From assembly GCA_035504095.1 (NCBI GenBank), contig DATJSN010000045.1:591-64590 (forward strand): 64,000 nucleotides of DNA. Reading direction: 5' to 3'. Below are positions 7,111 to 64,000 of the stretch, in pieces. Every line of letters starts with the position of its first letter. The stretch's first letter is position 1. The position numbers and the translations under genes are program-made. A model generated the notes under the pieces. The model made no database searches. It was given only the letters and a program-made list of their open reading frames with translations, and was not told where the DNA came from. The DNA comes from Phycisphaerae bacterium. Its GTDB lineage: Bacteria > Planctomycetota > Phycisphaerae > WQYP01.

Positions 7111-9324
7111 TTATTGCACCTTCACCAGCACGGAGGCATACGCGTTATTACCCTGGTCATCCGTAGCCAGGATCACTACGCGATGCGACCCGGGGTCCAG
7201 AGCTTTCGTAATGGCGCTGAAGCCCTCCAGCGGCGAGTCGAAAATAGTATCCGATGCCGCCGCAGGCTGCCAGTTTGTCGCGGAATCGATTTGGAAGCTT
7301 ACCTGAGTAACCGGCGAGAGTTTATCGCTCGCGATGCCGGTAATCTCTACCTGTCTTCCAGGTAGAGCCTTCCACTGCAGATTGGCGATAGTAGGCGGTG
7401 TATTATTGACCAGGAACCATTGGGTTTGACGGGCCACTTCAAAAGCATTTTGCGGTGGATTGTCCGGTGCATCCGAAGCGATCACCCTTACCTGATAATA
7501 ACCGTCGGGAAGCCCCGTCGTGTCCCAGGAATATTGAGTATCGGACAAATCTTTGGCAATCGAAATCCATACCGGGATACCCTGCTGTTGATAAGAGAGT
7601 TTGTATGCCAGTGTATCGTTATTCGCATCCGAAGCCTCCCACTGGATCGTGAGCTGGTGAGGCGAGTCGGATTGTGGTTGCACCTGCACGCTGGAAATCT
7701 CCGGTGGTACATTGATCTGTTGATAGGAAATTCGCCCAAGATGAACCACCGGAGTTTGCCCGTTTTTATCCGCCTGCAGTGTCAGACGAAACTGCAAATA
7801 CCGTGCGGTGGGGCTGGAAATTTTGCGATATTCATTGGCCGGCATCGGAGCGGACCATGCGCTCCAAAATTTGCCCAGGGTATCCACGTCCGGCAAATTT
7901 CCGCTGCGTGTTTGAATTTCAACATCGGCTCCTTCAGGAATGTCGGCGTCAATATGCGCTGCGCCCCAGTTAGCCGGCAATTGGGCATCCAACACTTTAC
8001 TGGTGTACGTGCCGCCGTCTACCGTTCCTGAAGAGAGTTCATAAACCTGTCCCTGATTGGCGGTTCCCAGATAAAGTTGTCCGTCGGGACCCAAGGTCAT
8101 GCAAAGGATATTCGCTTCGTTCAACCGTGCGATCAGTGATCGTGTCTGTGTGGCGGGCGTAAAAAACAATAATCGTCCATGATCACTAAGTCCCAGCATC
8201 AGTACGCCCTGATTGTAGAGCATCGAAAGAATCATGTCCGGAACATGCAGTAAAGTCGTAATCCTTCCCGCTGGTGTAATTTCGTAAACAGCGTTGGTCT
8301 GCGATGACTGCCCCTGTTCGTCTTGGTCCGACTGCGGCTGTGTTGAATTCGCATCATCGCTGGCGTCGCCCTGATCATCTGCGGGGTTTAAATCGTCCTG
8401 GTCATCAGCGGCATCCTGACCCTGTCCGTCGCCGGAAACGGCGCCGCCAGTTACATTCAACGTTGCGGGTTGACCGCCTGTGTGACTCTGTGGTTGAAAT
8501 AAACCACCGCTTCCCTGGGCAAGTCCTGGTGAAGCTGTAGCTGCAAAAACATTACCAGCGGCATCGGCAGCCAATGAGGATATTTCGGCATGGTCGGCGG
8601 ACATCAAAACAAACGATTCTCCGCTGGAAGCATTGACGCGAATCACCAGTCCCGGGCCATCGGTGCCGGCATACAGATTGCCATCCAGCCCAACGACCAG
8701 AGACGTAATGTTGTGTACATCCGCGCTAAAAATTTCTTTTGACGTTCCCTGTGGATCAACCCTCCAGATCTGGCCGTGTGGTCCGGTCGCCAGATAAATG
8801 GACCCGTCCGCACCTTGTTCAATCGCCCATATATATTCAACGGATGCCTGTTGAAAAAGAGTCGTTGTCGTGACCTTACCGCCAACATTGGAGAGGCGAA
8901 TAAGCTGGGCGGAGGACCCGCAAGTGCCTGCGAGCAGGGCTCCATCTTTATCCATGGCCAGGCTTAAAATGTCTGTCTGTCCTGCCGGAGGTTGGTAATA
9001 TGCGCTGGTTTGCCCACCGGAAATTTTATATATTTTTCCATTGGGTGATGTGCCGAAATAAATGCTGCCGTCCGGGGCCGCTGCGATGGCGCTAATCATG
9101 GTGAACATCGTGTGGTTTAGCAGAGGTTTAAGTTCCCGGCTTAACTGTAACTCACCAAGATTATTCACCACGGTATTGTGAAAGCTTCCATCGGCATACG
9201 AAGATTCTGTATTAAATTCCCAGTTTTGAGCTTCCACCGCCCAGGCAATCGGAGTCGCAATCAGCAGAACGGCTCCGATCGCAACCAAGATGTTTACCGT
9301 CCGATAAATTTTTTCTGCCAACAT
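7111..9324 (-). CDS. Large secreted/anchored protein: repeated beta-propeller-type blades, an acidic D/Q-rich low-complexity linker and a C-terminal Ig/Fn3-like region.
   Basis: 737 aa with an N-terminal signal-anchor. Repeated DGSIY(F/L)GT...G(Q/K)I(Y/W) blades occur about 6 times. Low-complexity segment DDQDDLNPADDQGDASDD. Confidence 0.8.
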   Translation of the reverse strand: MLAEKIYRTVNILVAIGAVLLIATPIAWAVEAQNWEFNTESSYADGSFHNTVVNNLGELQLSRELKPLLNHTMFTMISAIAAAPDGSIYFGTSPNGKIYKISGGQTSAYYQPPAGQTDILSLAMDKDGALLAGTCGSSAQLIRLSNVGGKVTTTTLFQQASVEYIWAIEQGADGSIYLATGPHGQIWRVDPQGTSKEIFSADVHNITSLVVGLDGNLYAGTDGPGLVIRVNASSGESFVLMSADHAEISSLAADAAGNVFAATASPGLAQGSGGLFQPQSHTGGQPATLNVTGGAVSGDGQGQDAADDQDDLNPADDQGDASDDANSTQPQSDQDEQGQSSQTNAVYEITPAGRITTLLHVPDMILSMLYNQGVLMLGLSDHGRLLFFTPATQTRSLIARLNEANILCMTLGPDGQLYLGTANQGQVYELSSGTVDGGTYTSKVLDAQLPANWGAAHIDADIPEGADVEIQTRSGNLPDVDTLGKFWSAWSAPMPANEYRKISSPTARYLQFRLTLQADKNGQTPVVHLGRISYQQINVPPEISSVQVQPQSDSPHQLTIQWEASDANNDTLAYKLSYQQQGIPVWISIAKDLSDTQYSWDTTGLPDGYYQVRVIASDAPDNPPQNAFEVARQTQWFLVNNTPPTIANLQWKALPGRQVEITGIASDKLSPVTQVSFQIDSATNWQPAAASDTIFDSPLEGFSAITKALDPGSHRVVILATDDQGNNAYASVLVKVQ

Positions 9325-9355
9325 TTGTTCTCCAGAATATTTGTTTTAAAGCCAA

Positions 9356-11404
9356 TTAATTTTCTTCGGCTCCGGAATCATCGGAACTGCCCGGCGGCGG
9401 TGGTGATGCCGGTTCCGGCGACGGCGGTTGTGCGAAACGCTCATCAGCATGGAGGCGAACCTGAATATGAAACTCACGCTGGCCGCCGTCCTGTACCACA
9501 GCACCAGCGTCCACGCTCGTTACAGCCTGATTATAAATAGGATACACATCGCCGCTTTGGTAGGCTGCCAGAAGTTCCATGCGGCTCGCCGGCAGATTTT
9601 CCATAGCCTGCTGCCCCTGTTGAATGCCCTGGACGTTAAGTATCAAACGGGCATAAACGCGATCCTGGCGGTAGGCCAAAAGACGCCTGATGTCTGTCTT
9701 TAAAGATTCAATGTCGGTTGGATTAAAATACTGAGGAAAATAATTGGCTTCCTGTTGTACTGATTCCCCCGCCGATCCCACAACCAGATCATAATCACCA
9801 TCGGGCGTATCCCGGGGAATCACGAGTTTCATATCAACTGGTGTTACCGGCATATCCGTTGCTTTAAGTTGTACCTGTATGTGAACACTGTCGCCCGGCG
9901 CCACTATTGTTCGATCCACCGCCGCTGAAAGTATCTGGGCGCCATGATCAACAGTGCTTTGCTGAATATTCAGATTGACGCTTTGAAGGTCCAGATTATC
10001 AAAAGGATTATTGGTCAGCAGCGACACTGGAAGCAGAGTAGAAGTCGGATCAAAGTCTCCGGTTTGCTTATCCTGGTCCATACCGGTGGATGCCTGCTGG
10101 TTAATCTCATATATCTGGCCGCCGGCCTTGATCTGACCCGTGATGGACAAGGTGTAATTGGTTGTTTTGCTGACCAGCGTGCGACGTGCCGTCATCGAAC
10201 CTAAGATCGCCCCGGCAAGTGCATCCATGGTGGAATTCGGCCCGGGATAAAGTTGATAGTGAAAAACACGATCCTGATCCGGATCAAAATTTTGGACGGT
10301 AATGGTCACGGGAACTGAGGCTCCCGTTTCTCCTAAGGCACCAACGATTCCCGTCGCATTGTCCATAACCAACTGTCCCTGCGGCATAAAACTTGTACCC
10401 ATTTTGAACGATTCATCGTATCCTGGAATAATTGTATAAATATATGTCGTTTCTATCGGTAAATTATTCGGTCCCTGGGCGAAAAATTCGTGACCAAATG
10501 CATAAACATGATCACCGACCACGTCTGTCACCGTGCCGATTGCCGACATATCCACGTCACCTGTGAGAAGGGGAACCGCAATTCCGGAACCGGGCTCCAA
10601 ATGCACCACCGACGGTCTTATCTGGGTCATTCCGCCGAGATATTCGTCGCCGCCCGATGCGGAACCGGCAGCCAGCGGCACCAGACCTTCATCGGCTAAT
10701 GTCCGCTGCAGGTAATGAAGCACTGTCGGGGAAGCCCCACTGACCATCAGCGGAGATGCCAGTGCCATCAATCCCAGACGCCGTTCATTTTCACTTTGGG
10801 TTTGGGAATCCTGGTTATTCATTCCCGAATTGCACTTAAATACATTAGCAACCAGGTTCGACCAGCCTGAAAGTTGTGCAGTCATGGCCGTCCATTCCAC
10901 TTGAGATGGGCTTTGCGCCGCTAAATTCGCCGGCGCAGCAGGATTGGGCAACGGAATACCGAGCATCTGGCGTATCGGCTGAACACCCGCAATGGGATCC
11001 TTGGAAAAACCCCAACCGTAGGCAATTGCTCCAATCAATTTGCCATCAATGTAACATGGTGATCCACTCATGCCGGCGATAATCCCCGAATGTTCGAGGC
11101 CCAGACCGCTGCAGCGCACCAGAATGACATTCATGTCCGGTTGAAAATTTTTGATTACATCAATCACCTTGAATTCAAATTTGTCTATTGTCACCCCGTG
11201 CATCACGGTTAAACCGTAACCGGTCATTCCCGGAAAAATGTCATTTTCAAACAGGCATTGATTCGCCGCCTGAGTTAAAGCCGTTGATTGAGCGGCGGGC
11301 AAAGTCTGGCCGAATACCGATGGCTGGCAAAAAACGAGCGCCCCCGCCAAAGCCGCCGTCATGTTCAAAACATACCGTTTAATATCGCGTTGCGCCATTT
11401 TCAT
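9356..11404 (-). CDS. Secreted putative serine peptidase (trypsin-fold, S55/SpoIVB-like GxSGSP motif). The track ORF extends to 11530; the preferred start is the ATG at 11404, giving an N-terminal signal peptide.
   Basis: GMSGSPCYIDGKLIGAIAYGW resembles the catalytic-serine motif of trypsin-fold peptidases. MKMAQRDIKRYVLNMTAALAGALVF reads as a signal peptide. Confidence 0.7.
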   Translation of the reverse strand: MKMAQRDIKRYVLNMTAALAGALVFCQPSVFGQTLPAAQSTALTQAANQCLFENDIFPGMTGYGLTVMHGVTIDKFEFKVIDVIKNFQPDMNVILVRCSGLGLEHSGIIAGMSGSPCYIDGKLIGAIAYGWGFSKDPIAGVQPIRQMLGIPLPNPAAPANLAAQSPSQVEWTAMTAQLSGWSNLVANVFKCNSGMNNQDSQTQSENERRLGLMALASPLMVSGASPTVLHYLQRTLADEGLVPLAAGSASGGDEYLGGMTQIRPSVVHLEPGSGIAVPLLTGDVDMSAIGTVTDVVGDHVYAFGHEFFAQGPNNLPIETTYIYTIIPGYDESFKMGTSFMPQGQLVMDNATGIVGALGETGASVPVTITVQNFDPDQDRVFHYQLYPGPNSTMDALAGAILGSMTARRTLVSKTTNYTLSITGQIKAGGQIYEINQQASTGMDQDKQTGDFDPTSTLLPVSLLTNNPFDNLDLQSVNLNIQQSTVDHGAQILSAAVDRTIVAPGDSVHIQVQLKATDMPVTPVDMKLVIPRDTPDGDYDLVVGSAGESVQQEANYFPQYFNPTDIESLKTDIRRLLAYRQDRVYARLILNVQGIQQGQQAMENLPASRMELLAAYQSGDVYPIYNQAVTSVDAGAVVQDGGQREFHIQVRLHADERFAQPPSPEPASPPPPGSSDDSGAEEN

Positions 11405-23509: not shown

Positions 23510-23788
23510 AGAATCTATCTCAAACCATAGCGAGAGCCGCGTTTGGCATCAAAGTGGTCAGATGCAAGGAAGAGCGACGAGGTTATATTCGAAAGATAAT
23601 ATGGTGAGGAGTGTTGACGCCGCAGATGGCCGCTTGGAGGCCAAACCCTTCGGGACGAGGCTGCCTGACCCCGAATCCGGCGTCGCACCTTCTCGCTGTA
23701 TTGTATTTTAATACTCGCTCGTCGATGCTCCTTGGCTCGGAGCCAGGCAGCCGACGTCGCGGCCTCGATATGTTTTGAGATAGATTCT
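23510..23788. repeat. Copy A of a ~280 bp structured inverted-repeat element (candidate ncRNA or MITE-like), bounded by 15 bp terminal inverted repeats AGAATCTATCTCAAA / TTTGAGATAGATTCT.
   Basis: The core aligns with 59500-59740 in shared blocks: GAGCCGCGTT(T/G)GGC, CAGATGCAAGG, CGCCGCAGATGG, CCCTTCGGGACG, GGCGTCGC, CTCGCTGTATTGTATT(T/C)TAATAC, TCGTCGA(T/A)GCTCCTTG, CAGC(C)GTCGCGGCC. A sub-hairpin shows compensatory changes (ATATT-cgaaagat-AATAT versus GTATC-cgaaggat-GATAC). It ends 2 nt before the ATG at 23790. Confidence 0.7.
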
Positions 23789-57126: not shown

Positions 57127-59475
57127 TCACGCAGCCACAAACGAAACCGCCCATTGCACTTCCCGACTTACCGGAGATTCAATTGTCACCCGCGTCCAGA
57201 AGCCGGCTTCCGCGTGCGAAATTTTTACGCCCGCTGCCGTATCCGCCGATGAAACAACGACTGAAGCAACTGGCGCGCTGGCCTGACCGTTTTTCGTTAA
57301 AACTACTAACTCGGGCGCCGGTTGTGAAATGCGCAATTCATAAGCCGATCCGCCTACTACTTTGCTGGTTCCGCTGAGCGTGTTAGTTTCCGGATTCCAT
57401 TGTTCACTCACCAGGTCGACCGCCCCCTGTGTGACGTGACGGGACGTGCTGATCAGTTGCGGATTCTTTGTCCGTGGCCTAATCGCCATTACCAGACACG
57501 TTCGCCCCGGCAGATCAAATGTCCAGCTATTTAAACCGCTGATCGGTTTATTGCCCCAGAAATCAAAAGCGTCATAGACTGCGTTAGGGTCCAACCCCGC
57601 CGCTGCTGGATCAACTTGTGCCGTCCAGTGTCCGCTGCTCCAGTTGAACAAACCCAGAACGTAATGGACCTCATCGTCGACTTTATAAGTTAACATCCAA
57701 ATCCGCGCCGGATCATTATCAAACAGGTCCACTGGGCGGACCGTTTTGAATTGATGCGAAGGCATCATGCAGCGCAGTGCGTCGATGCGTTCCTGCGTGT
57801 ATTCCAGCATCCAGTCACTGGTAGTGTGATGGGCGCTAAGCAACGTCACCCATGAGCCATAACACAAAAACTCGTTCATCGGAACCGAAAGTCGGGCGTA
57901 AATCGGATCAGGATCGTTCCACCATACGCGCCCGTTAAGAAAATACAGATGCGAACCGGCGTGTGTTCCATGCTGAATATTGGCCCATTTGGATGTGTTG
58001 TCCGGCCCGATGCGCATCGCGTCGACCAACCCCAGCTCCATGCCCAGCGAACGCTCATTTTGAGGCAAACAACACCCGAGGATAAATGTATCTGGTCCGG
58101 CGGCCTCACGAATTGTCTTAAGTCCCAGCCGTGCCGCCTGCATATTGGACATGGTTTTGTCCTTGAATACCGCGTCGCCGAAGTTGTCCTCGTAATAAGC
58201 TTGATTCGCAATTTGATGAGAATAATCCTGCAGACATGCCAACCCTGTATATTGGCCGTCGATTTTCAGATAACCATACCCCCACTTATTCATCGCCTGA
58301 CTGATAAACCCTGCGACATAATCCCGTGCTTTACTGTACGTCATGTCCAGGCATGTGCCGCCCCAATAAGTGTCATATACCGAACCATCTTCCCGGCGAA
58401 CCACCAGGTCCAGCTTGTCTGCGAATATTGGATCCTGATAATCAATCGCGAACGGCAGCATCCATATTCCCGGCAGCAGTCCCAGCGCCGCGATCTTATC
58501 CGCCACCGGTTTCATGCCCGCCGCATACGGCCCTTTGGGATTCACATGATAAAAATCCATCGCCGGCCAGCCGTTGCGCTTCTGGCCGTTTTGCCAGTGA
58601 TCGTCAATTTGCACAAAACTGAACCCAAACGGGGCAAAATTTTTGGCGGCATATTCAGCGATTTGCTGCAGATGTTCCGGATCGGAAGCGGCGCCATGTT
58701 TATCCGAATACCACGTGCAATATCCCGGAGCATGTGGCTTAAGTTTGACCCCGTTAATCAAGGCAAACTGATCTGCCCAGGTTTCCAGGCCATCGCGTAC
58801 ATCGTCAAACCAGCCGATCGCCCACCAGTCCCCGCCGAATTCATCCAATGTAGGCGGAATCGCACTGCCGTAATCGTTACGCAATTTTAGTACAATTTTG
58901 CCGCCTTCCACTCTTGGAAATATCACGCCGCTGGCGGCGTCTATTCTGATCAGACCCGCCACTACGCCGCTTCGTGAGACTGGATCGGCGACTGTTGTTA
59001 CCACGTGTTGGCCCGGATTGTTCGCCGGATCATAAAGTCCGCCTGCCCCTAGTCCTTTGGTCGACGCCTCAAGACTTAATTTCGCCTCAAATACGCTCAC
59101 CCGATGTCCCGGCATGATCACGTCGGAGTTGCGCGGATCGCGGCGAATAAAAACAAACGGAACATCCTGGGCAATAACAATCCAGTTTTCTCCCGGCGAA
59201 ATTTTCAACACTTTTCCCGGACCAAATGGCGAATCCGCGCCCAGATCAACGATGCTGCACGACCCTGCTCCGGGCTGCATAAACAACCCCGATGCGAATG
59301 GACTTAAATCGGCAGCCAATGTCAGCATGCCCGTGGTCGTATCCATGCCGGCAAATACTTTGCCGTTGCTGATGATGCTCACCGGTGAATCAGTCTGTGC
59401 GTAAAGTTTGGCAGGAATGCTCGCCGCCCCCGCCGATACCAGCAAGGTTCCTACAAATTCGCGACGTGTGAACAT
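57127..59475 (-). CDS. Tat-secreted putative glycoside hydrolase (TIM-barrel, alpha-galactosidase-like). The start is the ATG at 59475 (MFTRREFVGTLLVSAGAAS); the track ORF extends to 59646 through repeat element B.
   Basis: Twin-arginine signal RREFV. The internal WGYGYLKIDGQ resembles the catalytic KxD region of clan GH-D enzymes. The family assignment is tentative. Confidence 0.7.
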   Translation of the reverse strand: MFTRREFVGTLLVSAGAASIPAKLYAQTDSPVSIISNGKVFAGMDTTTGMLTLAADLSPFASGLFMQPGAGSCSIVDLGADSPFGPGKVLKISPGENWIVIAQDVPFVFIRRDPRNSDVIMPGHRVSVFEAKLSLEASTKGLGAGGLYDPANNPGQHVVTTVADPVSRSGVVAGLIRIDAASGVIFPRVEGGKIVLKLRNDYGSAIPPTLDEFGGDWWAIGWFDDVRDGLETWADQFALINGVKLKPHAPGYCTWYSDKHGAASDPEHLQQIAEYAAKNFAPFGFSFVQIDDHWQNGQKRNGWPAMDFYHVNPKGPYAAGMKPVADKIAALGLLPGIWMLPFAIDYQDPIFADKLDLVVRREDGSVYDTYWGGTCLDMTYSKARDYVAGFISQAMNKWGYGYLKIDGQYTGLACLQDYSHQIANQAYYEDNFGDAVFKDKTMSNMQAARLGLKTIREAAGPDTFILGCCLPQNERSLGMELGLVDAMRIGPDNTSKWANIQHGTHAGSHLYFLNGRVWWNDPDPIYARLSVPMNEFLCYGSWVTLLSAHHTTSDWMLEYTQERIDALRCMMPSHQFKTVRPVDLFDNDPARIWMLTYKVDDEVHYVLGLFNWSSGHWTAQVDPAAAGLDPNAVYDAFDFWGNKPISGLNSWTFDLPGRTCLVMAIRPRTKNPQLISTSRHVTQGAVDLVSEQWNPETNTLSGTSKVVGGSAYELRISQPAPELVVLTKNGQASAPVASVVVSSADTAAGVKISHAEAGFWTRVTIESPVSREVQWAVSFVAA

Positions 59476-59476
59476 A

Positions 59477-59762
59477 GTAAGAGCCTCTAACAACATAAGC
59501 CGGGAGCCGCGTTGGGCCGCAAATGGCCCAGATGCAAGGCGGAGGCCCGAAGCCGTATCCGAAGGATGATACAACGAGGGCCGACAACGCCGCAGATGGG
59601 CCATTTGCGACCCAACCCTTCGGGACGCGGTGCCTTTCGGCCCCATACGGCGTCGCTTCTCCTCGCTGTATTGTATTCTAATACTTGCATCGTCGAAGCT
59701 CCTTGTCTGGGACCCAAATGCCCAGCGTCGCGGCCCCGCCTTATGTTGTTAAAGGCTCTAAC
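59477..59762. repeat. Copy B of the ~280 bp structured inverted-repeat element, with 22-23 bp terminal inverted repeats GTAAGAGCCTCTAACAACATAAG / CTTATGTTGTTAAAGGCTCTAAC.
   Basis: The core aligns with copy A (23525-23770). Its terminal stems have a different sequence from copy A but are self-complementary in both copies. It begins 1 nt from the ATG (59475) of the minus-strand hydrolase gene. Confidence 0.7.
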
Positions 59763-59853
59763 CCTCCTCGTGGACCGCCATTTAAATAAAACTTACCATT
59801 CATCATCTGCCGCTGCCAGTGATTTAATGGCGTTATTCCAGTAACATAACGTC

Positions 59854-60465
59854 ATGACCACCGGGCTATTACAAAATCAAACCTGGGACGTCGGCCGCAC
59901 TGCCGGTCTATGTTCTGCTTGCTCAATGACCCTTACACCAGGCACGACGTGTTGGGCTGCTTTGGTGGAATTACCTAAATCCGGCGGCAGTGCTAATACC
60001 GCCGACGCCAACAAGGATAAACCCATCAGCCCCTGGCAACGCCTCGACTTCTGCCAGGCCTGCTGGTCTGCCGGCAAACGCCCCGCGCCGCCATTGGATA
60101 TGTTTTCATTTTGGAAAACCATCACGCCCGAGCCGGAGAAAAAACGCCGGATTTTTGTTGACGATTCCGTACTCATGGATCTGTTTAATCGTCTCGTCGA
60201 TCGCACCGATATGACGGACATCCGTTTTCGTTTTGTTCTGGCGCTCCTGCTGATGCGCAAAAAATTACTTAAATACGAGGGAATTGAAACACTGCCGACC
60301 GATATGGCCGAACGCTTTAAAGAATTAACTCCTCAGCCGGAACTCTGGAAAATGTTTCCCCGCCAGAGCGATTTTTCTGTTATGGTTGTCAATCCTCACC
60401 TGACTCCTGAGCAGATCAGTCAGGTATCTGAGCAGCTTTCTACAATCCTTGCCGAAGAAGTTTAA
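59854..60465 (+). CDS. Hypothetical protein with N-terminal CxxC...CxxC zinc-ribbon-like motif
   Basis: 203 aa; CSACSM...CQACW. Its last about 22 codons are duplicated at 61849-61935. Confidence 0.6.
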   Translation: MTTGLLQNQTWDVGRTAGLCSACSMTLTPGTTCWAALVELPKSGGSANTADANKDKPISPWQRLDFCQACWSAGKRPAPPLDMFSFWKTITPEPEKKRRIFVDDSVLMDLFNRLVDRTDMTDIRFRFVLALLLMRKKLLKYEGIETLPTDMAERFKELTPQPELWKMFPRQSDFSVMVVNPHLTPEQISQVSEQLSTILAEEV

Positions 60466-60474
60466 TGTCACTGT

Positions 60475-61797
60475 TTGCTTGATAGCGCCGGGAAAATCTT
60501 GGAATTAAGCCAACAATCAACATCTGGAAACGCAACGCTTCCCACGGACCCATTGCATCTGGGCAGGAAGATTATTCCTGGACTCGATGGCCTTCGCGGC
60601 GTGGCGATCCTCCTGGTCTTAATTATTCATTACGCCAGTTTTTGGCCGCGGGATTCACAGTTTTCCATGTATCTTTATCGCACGCTGGGAATTTGTACCA
60701 CTGGCGTGCAGCTATTCTTTGTACTCTCAGGATTTCTGATTACAGGCATTCTGCTGGATTCCAAAGAAACAACGCTGCATTATTTTCGAAACTTTTACAT
60801 GCGGCGTTTCCTGAGGATTTTTCCACTCTATTATGCCGCCGTAGCCATCTTCAGCATTTATGCGCTGGCGCTGGCATTTGGGGCGGTTCGTCCCGGACAG
60901 ATGCTGGGATTCGAAAACAACGCTGCTTTGAATCCACACGAATACCTTTCATACCTGCCATGGCTTTTGACCTATACATCGAATTTCTGGTCCATGATCC
61001 ACAACGAATTGATGCATGTTGTAGGGCCTTATTGGACCCTGGCCATCGAAGAGCAGTTTTATCTGGTTTGGCCTTTATTAGTCTTTTTCCTGCCCCGCAA
61101 GGCTGTGCTTTGGACGAGCATTGGTTTGGTGTTGGTCTCTGCGCTATGGTGGTGCCTCGCCGCAACTACTGCGATGGGCTACACCACGATTTACGTTGCC
61201 ACTCCGGCTCAGGTAAACGCACTTGGCGCCGGGGCAATGCTTGCCGTCATGATGCGCGACCCAAAGATGCGATATTTGATGGCGAAGCTTTCATTACCTA
61301 TACTGGCGATCTCTGGAGTTATTATCGTTTTTGCCTTGGCATCGATTTGGACATCTAACTTCGATTGGTTTTCAGTGCACCCTGCGGTAACCCTGATTAA
61401 GACCACTGCTGGAAGCACCATCGAAATTCCGGGATTCTCGAGCGGCACGGTAAACGCTTTGTTATGGACTGTGATTGCGCTGTTTTACGCCGCTTTGCTG
61501 AGTTGTGTCCTTTTTTCGGGAGAAAAACGCGGCTTTCTGGGACAAGTGATGTCCTCCGGGATTATGACGTGGTTCGGCCGTTATAGTTATGGCATATACA
61601 TCTTACATGTCGCGGTAATGTTTACTGTTTCGGACCTGATCAGCTTCGTCGGGCGTTTGACGCGGTTGTCGGGAACGACCGGTTTGCCATCGGTGCGTGT
61701 GCTGGTTTCGTTGATTTTGACCTGTGGGTTGGCATATTTGAGTTACCATCTGTTTGAGAAACGGTTTCTGGCGCTCAAACGCTTTTTCCCGGATTGA
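60475..61797 (+). CDS. Acyltransferase family 3 (OafA/YrhL-like) integral membrane O-acyltransferase
   Basis: GLDGLRGVAILLVLIIHY N-terminal signature and about 10 TM helices; 440 aa. Confidence 0.85.
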   Translation: MLDSAGKILELSQQSTSGNATLPTDPLHLGRKIIPGLDGLRGVAILLVLIIHYASFWPRDSQFSMYLYRTLGICTTGVQLFFVLSGFLITGILLDSKETTLHYFRNFYMRRFLRIFPLYYAAVAIFSIYALALAFGAVRPGQMLGFENNAALNPHEYLSYLPWLLTYTSNFWSMIHNELMHVVGPYWTLAIEEQFYLVWPLLVFFLPRKAVLWTSIGLVLVSALWWCLAATTAMGYTTIYVATPAQVNALGAGAMLAVMMRDPKMRYLMAKLSLPILAISGVIIVFALASIWTSNFDWFSVHPAVTLIKTTAGSTIEIPGFSSGTVNALLWTVIALFYAALLSCVLFSGEKRGFLGQVMSSGIMTWFGRYSYGIYILHVAVMFTVSDLISFVGRLTRLSGTTGLPSVRVLVSLILTCGLAYLSYHLFEKRFLALKRFFPD

Positions 61798-61848
61798 AAA
61801 TTTTGTGTTTTTTATCTCTTTCGTCGTGCCGTAGTCTCGTTGTGGTAA

Positions 61849-61935
61849 AGAATATTCCCGTCACCGCACCTGAGCACCGAACAGATTAGTCAGGTCTCCG
61901 AACAACTCTCCACCATTCTCGCCGAAGAAATTTAA
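61849..61935 (+). pseudogene. Duplicated 3'-terminal fragment (about 23 codons) of gene 59854-60465
   Basis: PHLSTEQISQVSEQLSTILAEEI* versus the parent PHLTPEQISQVSEQLSTILAEEV*. About 80% nt identity with mostly synonymous differences, preceded by an in-frame TAA. Confidence 0.65.
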
Positions 61936-61939
61936 TGTA

Positions 61940-61961
61940 GCTCAGGCTCTCCAGCCTGAGC
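61940..61961. repeat. REP-like perfect hairpin GCTCAGGCT-CTCC-AGCCTGAGC (CTCTCCAG-core family)
   Basis: 9 bp stem and 4 nt loop. Related CTCTCCAG / CTGGAGAG hairpins occur at 62573-62596 and 62601-62620, flanking ridA. Confidence 0.6.
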
Positions 61962-62087
61962 ATTGTAGTAAATGGGCATGCTCCGCATGCCGTGGTTTCC
62001 GAAGTTTTATTTTTGCCTTTGTACTTTTAATTTTTACTTCGTTGTCTCGTCGTGCCGTTGTGTCGTTGTGGTGAAAAATATTCTCTG

Positions 62088-62552
62088 TTACTTCACCTGC
62101 GCCAGTAGCTCCACTTCCACCGCCGCATTCAGCGGCAGCGCCGCCACGCCGATCGTCGTTCGCGCATGCCGCCCGATCTCGCCGCAAACCGCCGCCAATA
62201 GATCGCTTGCCCCATTGGCCACCAGCGAATGCTGCTCAAACGCCGGATCGCACTGTACAAACACCCCCACCCGCACAATCCGCACTAGCCTGTCCCAATG
62301 ACCGTCGATCACATCCTTTAGCACCGCCAAAGCATTAACGGCGGCAAGCTTCGCCGCTTCCTTCGCCTGCTCTACGCTCACGGGGTTTGGAACCTTGCCC
62401 AGGTAGACGACTTTCCCTTCGCGGCTCGGCAACTGCCCGCTGATAAAAACCAGTTGTCCGGTATTGACCGCAGTGACATAAGAAGCCACGGGCTTGGGCG
62501 CCGGCGGCAGAACCAGTCCCATCTTCTGTAAATTCTCTTCAATCGAATTCAT
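62088..62552 (-). CDS. ridA: RidA/YjgF/TdcF-family reactive-intermediate deaminase
   Basis: 154 aa; VNALAVLKDVIDG...VGVFVQCDP...RTTIGVAALPLNAAVEVELLAQV matches the YjgF family. Confidence 0.88.
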   Translation of the reverse strand: MNSIEENLQKMGLVLPPAPKPVASYVTAVNTGQLVFISGQLPSREGKVVYLGKVPNPVSVEQAKEAAKLAAVNALAVLKDVIDGHWDRLVRIVRVGVFVQCDPAFEQHSLVANGASDLLAAVCGEIGRHARTTIGVAALPLNAAVEVELLAQVK

Positions 62553-62572
62553 AAAAAAACCTATAAATTGTA

Positions 62573-62620
62573 GAGCAGCCTCTCCAGGCTGCTCTATAGG
62601 AGAATAGGCTGGAGAGCCCT
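62573..62620. repeat. Pair of REP-like hairpins (AGAGCAGCC-TCTCCA-GGCTGCTCT and GGCTGGAGAGCC) upstream of ridA
   Basis: Read directly from the sequence. They share the GGCTCTCCAGCC core and the GAGCATTGTAG flank with the 61940-61976 copy in inverted orientation. Confidence 0.55.
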
Positions 62621-63056
62621 GTTCTACAATGCTCGGGCCAAAAGCCTAAGCTACTAATGCATTCTTCTCAATCATTTAAAAATCTAGCTCAGACTCCCCA
62701 GCATGAGCATGTGACCGTAAGATTCACAGTTAATAAACGGTGGGTCCGCATGCTCACTAAACGCATTCGTCGACAATGCTGCATAAAGCAAAAATCTGTT
62801 TGACAAAACAAAAATATTAGCTATTATGATAATTGAAATATACCTATCCAAAAGGGCGATGGAGTTCGCCCTAACCGCCCCATGTCCATGGGGCTGATAA
62901 CTCCTATCGGGCTTTACCCAATGGAAATATGTCAGCGCATTCGTGCTGGATTTCCTGCCCGTAGGGTTTTCAGTCGTAGCATTCCGGATAAGCAACTCGC
63001 GGATATTCTTCTCCGCGGATTCGCTTCTCTTAGGATGCTGAACATGGCGTGGCAAC

Positions 63057-64000
<944 letters not shown>

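Follow-up and report, generated by a model that had tools for sequence, protein, structure and literature searches.

What looks like a recombination scar between two diverged alleles surrounds an acyltransferase gene of a Phycisphaerae bacterium

How did an acyltransferase gene come to lie between a complete gene and a second copy of that gene's 3' end? This question is raised by a stretch of 64,000 nucleotides (nt) from a Phycisphaerae bacterium (assembly GCA_035504095.1, contig DATJSN010000045.1), here called the window, whose positions serve as coordinates throughout. In it, gene X (59854-60465, + strand) is followed by the acyltransferase gene (acyl, 60475-61797, + strand), a repeat that recurs at the 3' end of ridA, a duplicate of the last codons of X and, finally, ridA itself (62088-62552, - strand). 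A first reading of the letters (the sequence-only reading) had proposed that this is the footprint of an old, decayed site-specific integration that rebuilt its target gene and brought in phage or island cargo. The comparisons described below suggest a different answer: the locus looks like an ordinary recombination scar between two diverged versions of the same region rather than a phage or island integration site. The history that we favour, with a probability of about one half, involves two alleles and homology-facilitated illegitimate recombination (HFIR) at the right joint.

The insertion and the X-end relic

The proteins encoded in the window have exact or near-exact counterparts in the public records HTV47930-HTV47933 of a Phycisphaerae metagenome-assembled genome (MAG), and several metagenome contigs cover the locus. 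L067 (sample ERZ27256528) represents the window's own strain, L001 is an independently assembled strain from another sample (ERZ27256608), L064 and L065 are contigs of related strains, both from sample ERZ27256562, and the contig L068 ends inside acyl. L061, L062 and L063 belong to a sister lineage, and L002 to a more distant relative. L001 has the same gene order and the same junction as the window. The sister lineage has the layout PMT_2 - melibiase - X - 84 nt - ridA, with neither acyl nor the relic, and its proteins are 80-82% (X), 81% (melibiase) and 85% (ridA of L063) identical to those of the window at the amino acid level. Since X is followed directly by the converging ridA in this nearest lineage, acyl is an insertion relative to it; the relatives without the acyltransferase gene that the sequence-only reading had proposed to look for thus exist. 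In L002 (X 70%, ridA 84% identical), two PDZ/HtrA protease genes lie between X and ridA and, as the same place is empty in the sister lineage, the X/ridA spacer is a variable slot. A search of genome contigs with X returned relatives of at most 60% identity, which are not syntenic downstream of X. Two further signals were discarded: a polymorphism suggested by L003 and L004, which end at X codon 172, carries no weight because both are 100% identical to L061, and an apparent phylogenetic discordance of ridA (76% versus 84%) arose only because a cluster representative was truncated, the full-length identity to L063 being 85%.

Gene X is an intact open reading frame (ORF) of 203 codons for a conserved hypothetical protein of Phycisphaerae and Planctomycetota with two CxxC pairs at its N-terminus. 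The named ones among its 64 homologues come from Phycisphaerae or Planctomycetota MAGs, and the C-terminus is strongly conserved across the 64 (NPHLTxEQIxEVSxQLSxILAEEI). Pfam and NCBIfam searches with X gave no match, and its AlphaFold 2 (AF2) model (mean pLDDT 81) matched no fold in the PDB. A repeat search of the 64-kb window located the resident 3' end of X at 60394-60468 (+ strand; codons 181-203, the stop codon and three further nt) and a second copy of these elements, the X-end relic, at 61864-61938 (+ strand). Over 75 nt, the copies share 77% of their nucleotides and 20 of 23 residues (PHLSTEQISQVSEQLSTILAEEI in the relic and PHLTPEQISQVSEQLSTILAEEV in resident X, each followed by a stop codon); the longest identical run is 9 nt (GCCGAAGAA), and the homology stops 3 nt past the stop codon (TAATGT). 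The duplicate is therefore as real as had been claimed; however, it starts at 61864 and not at 61849, and bases 61849-61863 are not derived from X. Its local alignment score of 41 compares with 10.5 +/- 1.4 (maximum 17) in 1000 shuffles, and both this repeat and the one at ridA described below are far above chance. A degenerate pattern of the X end occurs in the 64 kb in these two copies only, and the fragment is a locus-specific relic rather than a general repeat of 3' gene ends, the possibility that would have undermined the earlier claim. The relic is not an ORF: its frame is closed by a TAA at 61846-61848, past which it has no start codon. It encodes only the terminal helix of X in the AF2 model. 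We propose that it has no function of its own and lies in untranslated sequence 3' of acyl, ahead of the old terminators.

Of the 17 changes that separate the relic from the resident X end, 14 are synonymous and 3 non-synonymous (proportions of changed sites pS 0.87 and pN 0.057), and the synonymous divergence is saturated. Neutral decay, for which about one synonymous change per three non-synonymous ones is expected, does not account for this excess (P = 5e-7), and if decay were confined to the relic, about 1.8 synonymous differences would be expected rather than the 14 observed (P = 1e-8). The comparison of synonymous and non-synonymous changes, which had been put forward as a check on the fragment, hence contradicts decay in place, and the description of the duplicate as old and decayed is not supported. 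As most of the changes are synonymous, the relic will have spent nearly the whole of its divergence within a working X gene of another lineage. Among 69 compared nucleotides, 56 match between the relic and X of L063, 52 between the relic and resident X, and 52 between resident X and X of L063; the relic protein (HLST...EEI) is likewise nearer to the X C-terminus of the sister lineage than the resident one (HLTP...EEV) is. These similarities suggest that the relic derives from a different, roughly species-level lineage of X, which is called allele B below.

The ridA flank and the junction

A direct repeat of about 40 bp near the ends of acyl and ridA had also been reported, and it exists: the 37-nt copies D3a (61821-61857) and D3b (62047-62083) are 89% identical, and the latter ends 4 nt from the stop codon of ridA, an intact gene of the RidA/YjgF family (PF14588 and PF01042) that is convergent to X. 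A gapped alignment extends the likeness to 61809-61875 and 62031-62102 and covers a T-rich run, the D3 core, an AATATTC tail and TCA/TTA, the latter being the ridA stop codon on the + strand. The D3a region (61809-61863, + strand) thus comprises a T-rich stretch, the octamer core at 61821-61846, the tail AAAGAATATTCCCG and TCA, and the D3b region (62031-62090, + strand) a T-rich module, the octamer core at 62047-62072, the tail and the ridA stop codon (TTA). The tail is present in these two copies only and, among 55 members of the D3 family, the flanks of D3b most resemble those of D3a. We therefore read the D3a region as the ridA 3' flank in duplicate, with a ridA stop codon at its end.

The D3 core itself (TCGTCGTGCCGTYGTGTCGTTGTGGT) consists of three tandem YCGTYGTG octamers and recurs without mismatch in 51 unrelated metagenome stretches, which come from many samples and of which none carries X, acyl or ridA. 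A reading of the direct repeat as an att-like site is not supported, since its core is a dispersed motif. The core is often one arm of a hairpin (a stem of about 26 bp with a 10-20-nt AT-rich loop) or part of tandem units of about 400 nt, and the T-rich module also adjoins it in the unrelated locus L032. Outside D3a and D3b, the octamer motif is absent from the 64 kb, and related Phycisphaerae loci of about 100 kb in total also lack it. With regard to an integron gene cassette and its attC hairpin, D3a has no inverted partner at the locus, and no integrase was seen. D3 resembles the repetitive extragenic palindromic (REP) sequences and bacterial interspersed mosaic elements (BIME) in that its core recurs at many sites between genes and frequently forms a long hairpin around an AT-rich loop; unlike these, it is built of tandem octamers and present here as half-sites only, both in the same orientation. 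No described repeat family matching D3 was found. Short direct repeats should therefore be checked against dispersed repeat families before they are read as integration sites.

The ridA-flank-like sequence meets the relic at 61861-61872 in the junction TCA-CCGCACCTG, which can be read as X codons 181-183 (P-H-L) and equally as the reverse complement of the last ridA codons (Q-V-R-stop). The junction 12-mer TCACCGCACCTG equals the 3' end of ridA in L063 as read on the + strand (TCACCGCACCTGCGCC). The window's own ridA ends in TTACTTCACCTGCGCC, which has CACCTG in common with the relic border; the microhomology at which the two sequences meet is CACCTG/CCGCACCTG. Between the relic and ridA (61940-61991), the sequence and its folding show a short hairpin at 61940-61961 and another at 61975-61991. 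They probably served from the start as terminators for X and the convergent ridA; the spacer of the sister lineage contains a single hairpin in the corresponding position, and a simple terminator scan did not call the two. Around ridA, three related hairpins of about 30 nt (GCTCAGGCTCTCCAGCCTGAGC type, 70-87% alike) are found at 61934-61963, 62567-62596 and 62681-62710, and they may form a small local family of terminator-like repeats.

The differences between the window and L001 are clustered at 60121-60376 (19 differences) and 61804-61917 (9), and acyl differs by about 1%. The patch in X contains its 19 differences within 256 nt and has identical sequence on either side. This clustering indicates ongoing homologous exchange among diverged alleles. 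The relics of the two strains differ at 6 of 57 nt (5 synonymous, 1 non-synonymous, P = 0.004), which corresponds to a pS of 0.37 as opposed to about 0.025 in acyl. In L065, three synonymous states of relic type (GTC TCC GAA; 60426-60432) occur in an X end that is otherwise of resident type; this contig ends exactly at the X stop codon, and L064 from the same sample starts at 61974. Gene conversion was considered because five of the six relic differences in L001 are toward resident X, and it was rejected, as any transition at a two-fold site gives that state.

Site-specific integration, two alleles and the alternatives

Integrative elements that target 3' ends of tRNA, tmRNA or protein genes (attB) and become bordered by attL and attR likewise duplicate the end of their target and leave the upstream gene intact. 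In contrast to such elements, the X locus combines a single 1.3-kb cargo gene with copies that differ at 23% of their bases, and its displaced copy borders a copy of the opposite neighbour's flank. Pfam scans of the ORFs at 41.5-64 kb (about 18 kb upstream) and the gene list of the same-species contig L066, which begins inside ridA and covers about 10 kb downstream, revealed no integrase, transposase or phage genes, so that the absence of an integrase reported for the sequence at hand extends to this range; the genes found there are glycan, fluoride-operon and housekeeping genes only. With a longest run of 9 identical nt, no identical att core exists between the X-end copies, and the putative element would amount to a bare gene flanked by no more than 34 nt on its upstream and 11 nt on its downstream side. 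Taken together, these results do not support a site-specific integration that rebuilt its target. The assumption of phage or island cargo fares no better: acyl has a native composition (GC 0.493 and, at third codon positions, 0.562; window GC 0.495), its nearest homologue outside the species (64% identity) lies in a polysaccharide-synthesis cluster of another Phycisphaerae that also holds a flippase, methyltransferases and glycosyltransferases, the remaining homologues are at most 38% identical, and phage-borne ones reach at most 28%. The empty site in L061-L063 fits every insertion model alike. Duplicated gene ends around an insert are thus insufficient to call site-specific integration.

The history that we consider about as probable as all others together would start from an ancestral state in which X converged on ridA over a short spacer with terminator hairpins. 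One lineage, allele A, would have gained a bare acyltransferase gene in this spacer (X_A - acyl - ridA flank), presumably from a source within the Phycisphaerae, where its closest relative lies in the polysaccharide-synthesis cluster. Allele A DNA would then have entered a genome with the diverged, acyl-free allele B (X_B - hairpins - ridA flank - ridA). Homologous recombination would have taken place on its left side, in or upstream of X; on the right side, the end of the ridA_A flank (TCA CCG CAC CTG) would have been joined illegitimately to X_B codons 181-183 (CCG CAC CTG) over 6-12 nt, and no recombinase-specific site would have been involved. The expected product consists of X_A, acyl, the D3a flank, the junction, the X_B relic codons 181-203, the hairpins of allele B, the D3b flank and complete ridA. 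Such an event would have kept X and ridA whole, added acyl and stranded 72 nt of X_B, and the locus could be read as two tandem spacer alleles: [X end - acyl - ridA flank] and [X end - hairpins - ridA flank - ridA].

Two features expected of HFIR are present at the locus: the junction lies at a short microhomology exactly at the relic border (61861-61872), and a truncated recipient gene lies next to the insert, with divergence between the two sides. According to the experiments covered in PMC6382021, among them those of Meier and Wackernagel 2003 as cited there, HFIR joins at 3-10 bp microhomologies have been documented in three transformable species. The X locus resembles these cases in its short GC-rich microhomology on one side (6-12 nt, compared with 3-10 bp in the experiments), in the truncated remainder of a recipient gene by the insert and in the lack of a dedicated recombinase site; on the other side, a homology anchor would correspond to theirs. 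It differs from them in that the event is deduced from a scar in a Phycisphaerae MAG alone and that the 'foreign' DNA would be a diverged allele of the same locus.

Several observations weigh against this history. Neither parent allele was found in the genome and D3-core metagenome scans, that is, no relic-free allele A and no full-length X_B. The remnant of the ridA stop codon rests on few bases, part of the likeness between D3a and D3b is at family level because D3 and the tail are dispersed repeats, and GTCA-CCGCACCTG has an alternative reading as X sequence (GTCAATCCTCACCTG) that lost 2 nt. A clear step in identity that would mark the left crossover was not seen in sliding comparisons with L061 and L002. 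Natural transformation is not known from Phycisphaerae. Furthermore, the pattern of relic alleles in the two strains needs an extra assumption: these six substitutions may reflect later exchange with allele B strains, to which we attribute them, or selection on the relic.

Formally, one unit (X 3' end - acyl or hairpins - D3 flank) stands twice in tandem, with microhomology at both unit ends, and this layout could also have arisen in place: unequal crossover between two direct CCGCACCTG-like microhomologies would have duplicated a unit of about 226 bp (X codons 181-203, spacer, ridA flank), acyl would have entered the first copy, and allelic replacement would have followed later. The frequent allelic exchange among the strains and the relic-type patch (60426-60432) in the resident-type X of L065 are in line with such a replacement; a tandem duplication that lacks this step is incompatible with the excess of synonymous over non-synonymous changes (P = 1e-8). 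This explanation requires three events instead of two, however, and no relative has the duplicated unit without acyl; we regard it as unlikely, though it deserves to be kept in view. It is more doubtful still that a small circle (X 3' end, acyl and D3a) was integrated by a single Campbell-type crossover in the X 3' end, either homologous or by a recombinase encoded elsewhere. A circle of this kind would rebuild a complete X and displace the old X end to just past the insert, the bare gene is cassette-like, and the contigs of related strains from one sample break at the X stop codon (L065) and just after the relic (L064). However, genes for an integrase, excisionase or transposase are missing from about 10 kb on either side, the identical core has at most 9 nt, 72 nt at 77% identity make a poor substrate for homologous crossover, the phage homologues are at most 28% identical, and the circle does not predict ridA-flank-like sequence at the upstream border of the relic, where the two-allele history places it.

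Two further readings give the repeats a present-day role. The X-end copies, and perhaps the D3 sites as well, could form a working, integrase-free module that loops out and recaptures acyl, thereby acting as an on/off switch of a surface glycan; in that case the relic would be kept 'fresh' by exchange with acyl-free strains. We deem such a switch very improbable. Equally improbable would be that the relic is retained for its function, as a recombination handle for loss and regain of acyl or as a piece of the acyl 3' untranslated region. The relic is in frame with acyl, its alleles in the two strains differ by five synonymous changes and one non-synonymous change (P = 0.004), and contig breaks flank the module in sample ERZ27256562; but no start codon and two stop codons stand between acyl and the relic, a single terminal helix of X is encoded, the sample comprises six substitutions, and the raised divergence (pS 0.37 compared with about 0.025 in acyl) is more readily explained by imported alleles than by selection. 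Finally, the window comes from a metagenome-assembled contig, and several related strains share samples, so that an assembly chimera of two strain haplotypes has to be considered. Misassembly is unlikely because L001 shares the arrangement and the junction: the composite junction was recovered in assemblies from at least two samples (ERZ27256608, L001; ERZ27256528, L067), the relic of L001 differs at 6 of 57 nt, and the sequence shared at the joint (16 nt or less) is much shorter than the k-mers of the assemblies. A chimera is accordingly next to negligible.

If the two-allele history is right, the locus offers a natural example of a single accessory gene, likely a surface-glycan acylase, that entered a chromosome without mobile-element machinery, in the Planctomycetota, a phylum in which little is known of how genes are transferred. 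The event would be dated and oriented by the relic in combination with the microhomology joint and the sister lineage's empty site. The biology is ordinary, namely the gain of an acyltransferase gene beside a glycan region, and the scar is legible and of known kinds.

The acyltransferase and its surroundings

The product of acyl, a membrane enzyme that presumably acylates sugars, has 440 residues when counted from TTG 60475, or 432 from TTG 60499, the start used in the public records; the gene begins 10-34 nt past the stop codon of X, and the two are probably co-transcribed. Residues 35-424 match the acyltransferase 3 (AT3) family PF01757 (E = 3.6e-26, 92.4 bits against a gathering cutoff of 31, profile positions 2-325 of 326), and searches of NCBIfam and of PDB sequences gave no match. 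Three AT3 motifs have been defined, R/K-X10-H in the first transmembrane helix, FFxxSG and RxxR, which are needed for activity in the characterised AT3 enzymes (PMC7448272). All of them are found in acyl: R41-GVAILLVLII-H52, FFVLSG at 81-86 and RFLR at 111-114. The protein had been called an OafA-type acyltransferase. In OafA and OatA, however, AT3 is fused to an SGNH domain, whereas Oac of Shigella is an example of the AT3-only type (PMC7448272, PMC9558356). A C-terminal SGNH domain, which in the fused type comes after an 11th transmembrane helix, is absent from acyl, and no second Pfam domain was detected in its 440 residues, of which the AT3 match extends to residue 424; judged from its domain content, its architecture is nearer to Oac than to OafA, and it is not OafA-type in the strict sense.

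With AT3-only O-acyltransferases such as Oac, acyl shares the match to PF01757 over the whole protein, the three motifs and a glycan-rich neighbourhood. It lies at the edge of a region with GT1/GT4, GT9 and GT2 glycosyltransferases, sugar epimerases, an alginate lyase, a PEP-CTERM protein and PMT_2, and it is plausible that its product acylates a surface glycan. Unlike the phage-borne O-antigen acetylases, to which it is at most 28% identical, acyl is chromosomal and native in composition. Between the window and L001, its product is 98.9% identical at the amino acid level, and the genes differ in 8 synonymous and 5 non-synonymous codons.

Further elements lie on both sides of the locus. Upstream, the melibiase-like ORF (57127-59646, - strand, 839 residues) overruns the real start, which is likely to be near 59457 because the orthologues have 773-776 residues; its extra 5' part runs into an inserted structured element. 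This element of 286 nt (59477-59762), which separates the melibiase start from gene X, is bounded by 28-nt terminal inverted repeats. It is present in L065, and L001 has 7 nt (TCTGATG) in its place. A copy of its core with 73% identity, closed by a different 15-nt inverted repeat, is found at 23531-23767, and a further copy of the structured element at 9120-9380 (- strand) of L002. Folding gave z = -9 on one strand and -12 on the other, and RNAalifold of the three copies predicted 81 pairs, 30 of which show compensatory double changes. The element (about 240-286 nt) had no Rfam match at E <= 1 and is a candidate for a new structured non-coding RNA or structured mobile element of Phycisphaerae. 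An Rfam scan of 59300-63100 returned a fluoride riboswitch only (RF01734, 62846-62913, + strand, 56.5 bits, E = 3e-14), which precedes a metallophosphoesterase gene (63057-63770). The next genes of the operon, as seen in L066, encode enolase, a hypothetical protein and a CMAS-type methyltransferase and are followed by crcB and a DUF190 gene; in the sister lineage, crcB and the DUF190 gene stand directly after the riboswitch region.

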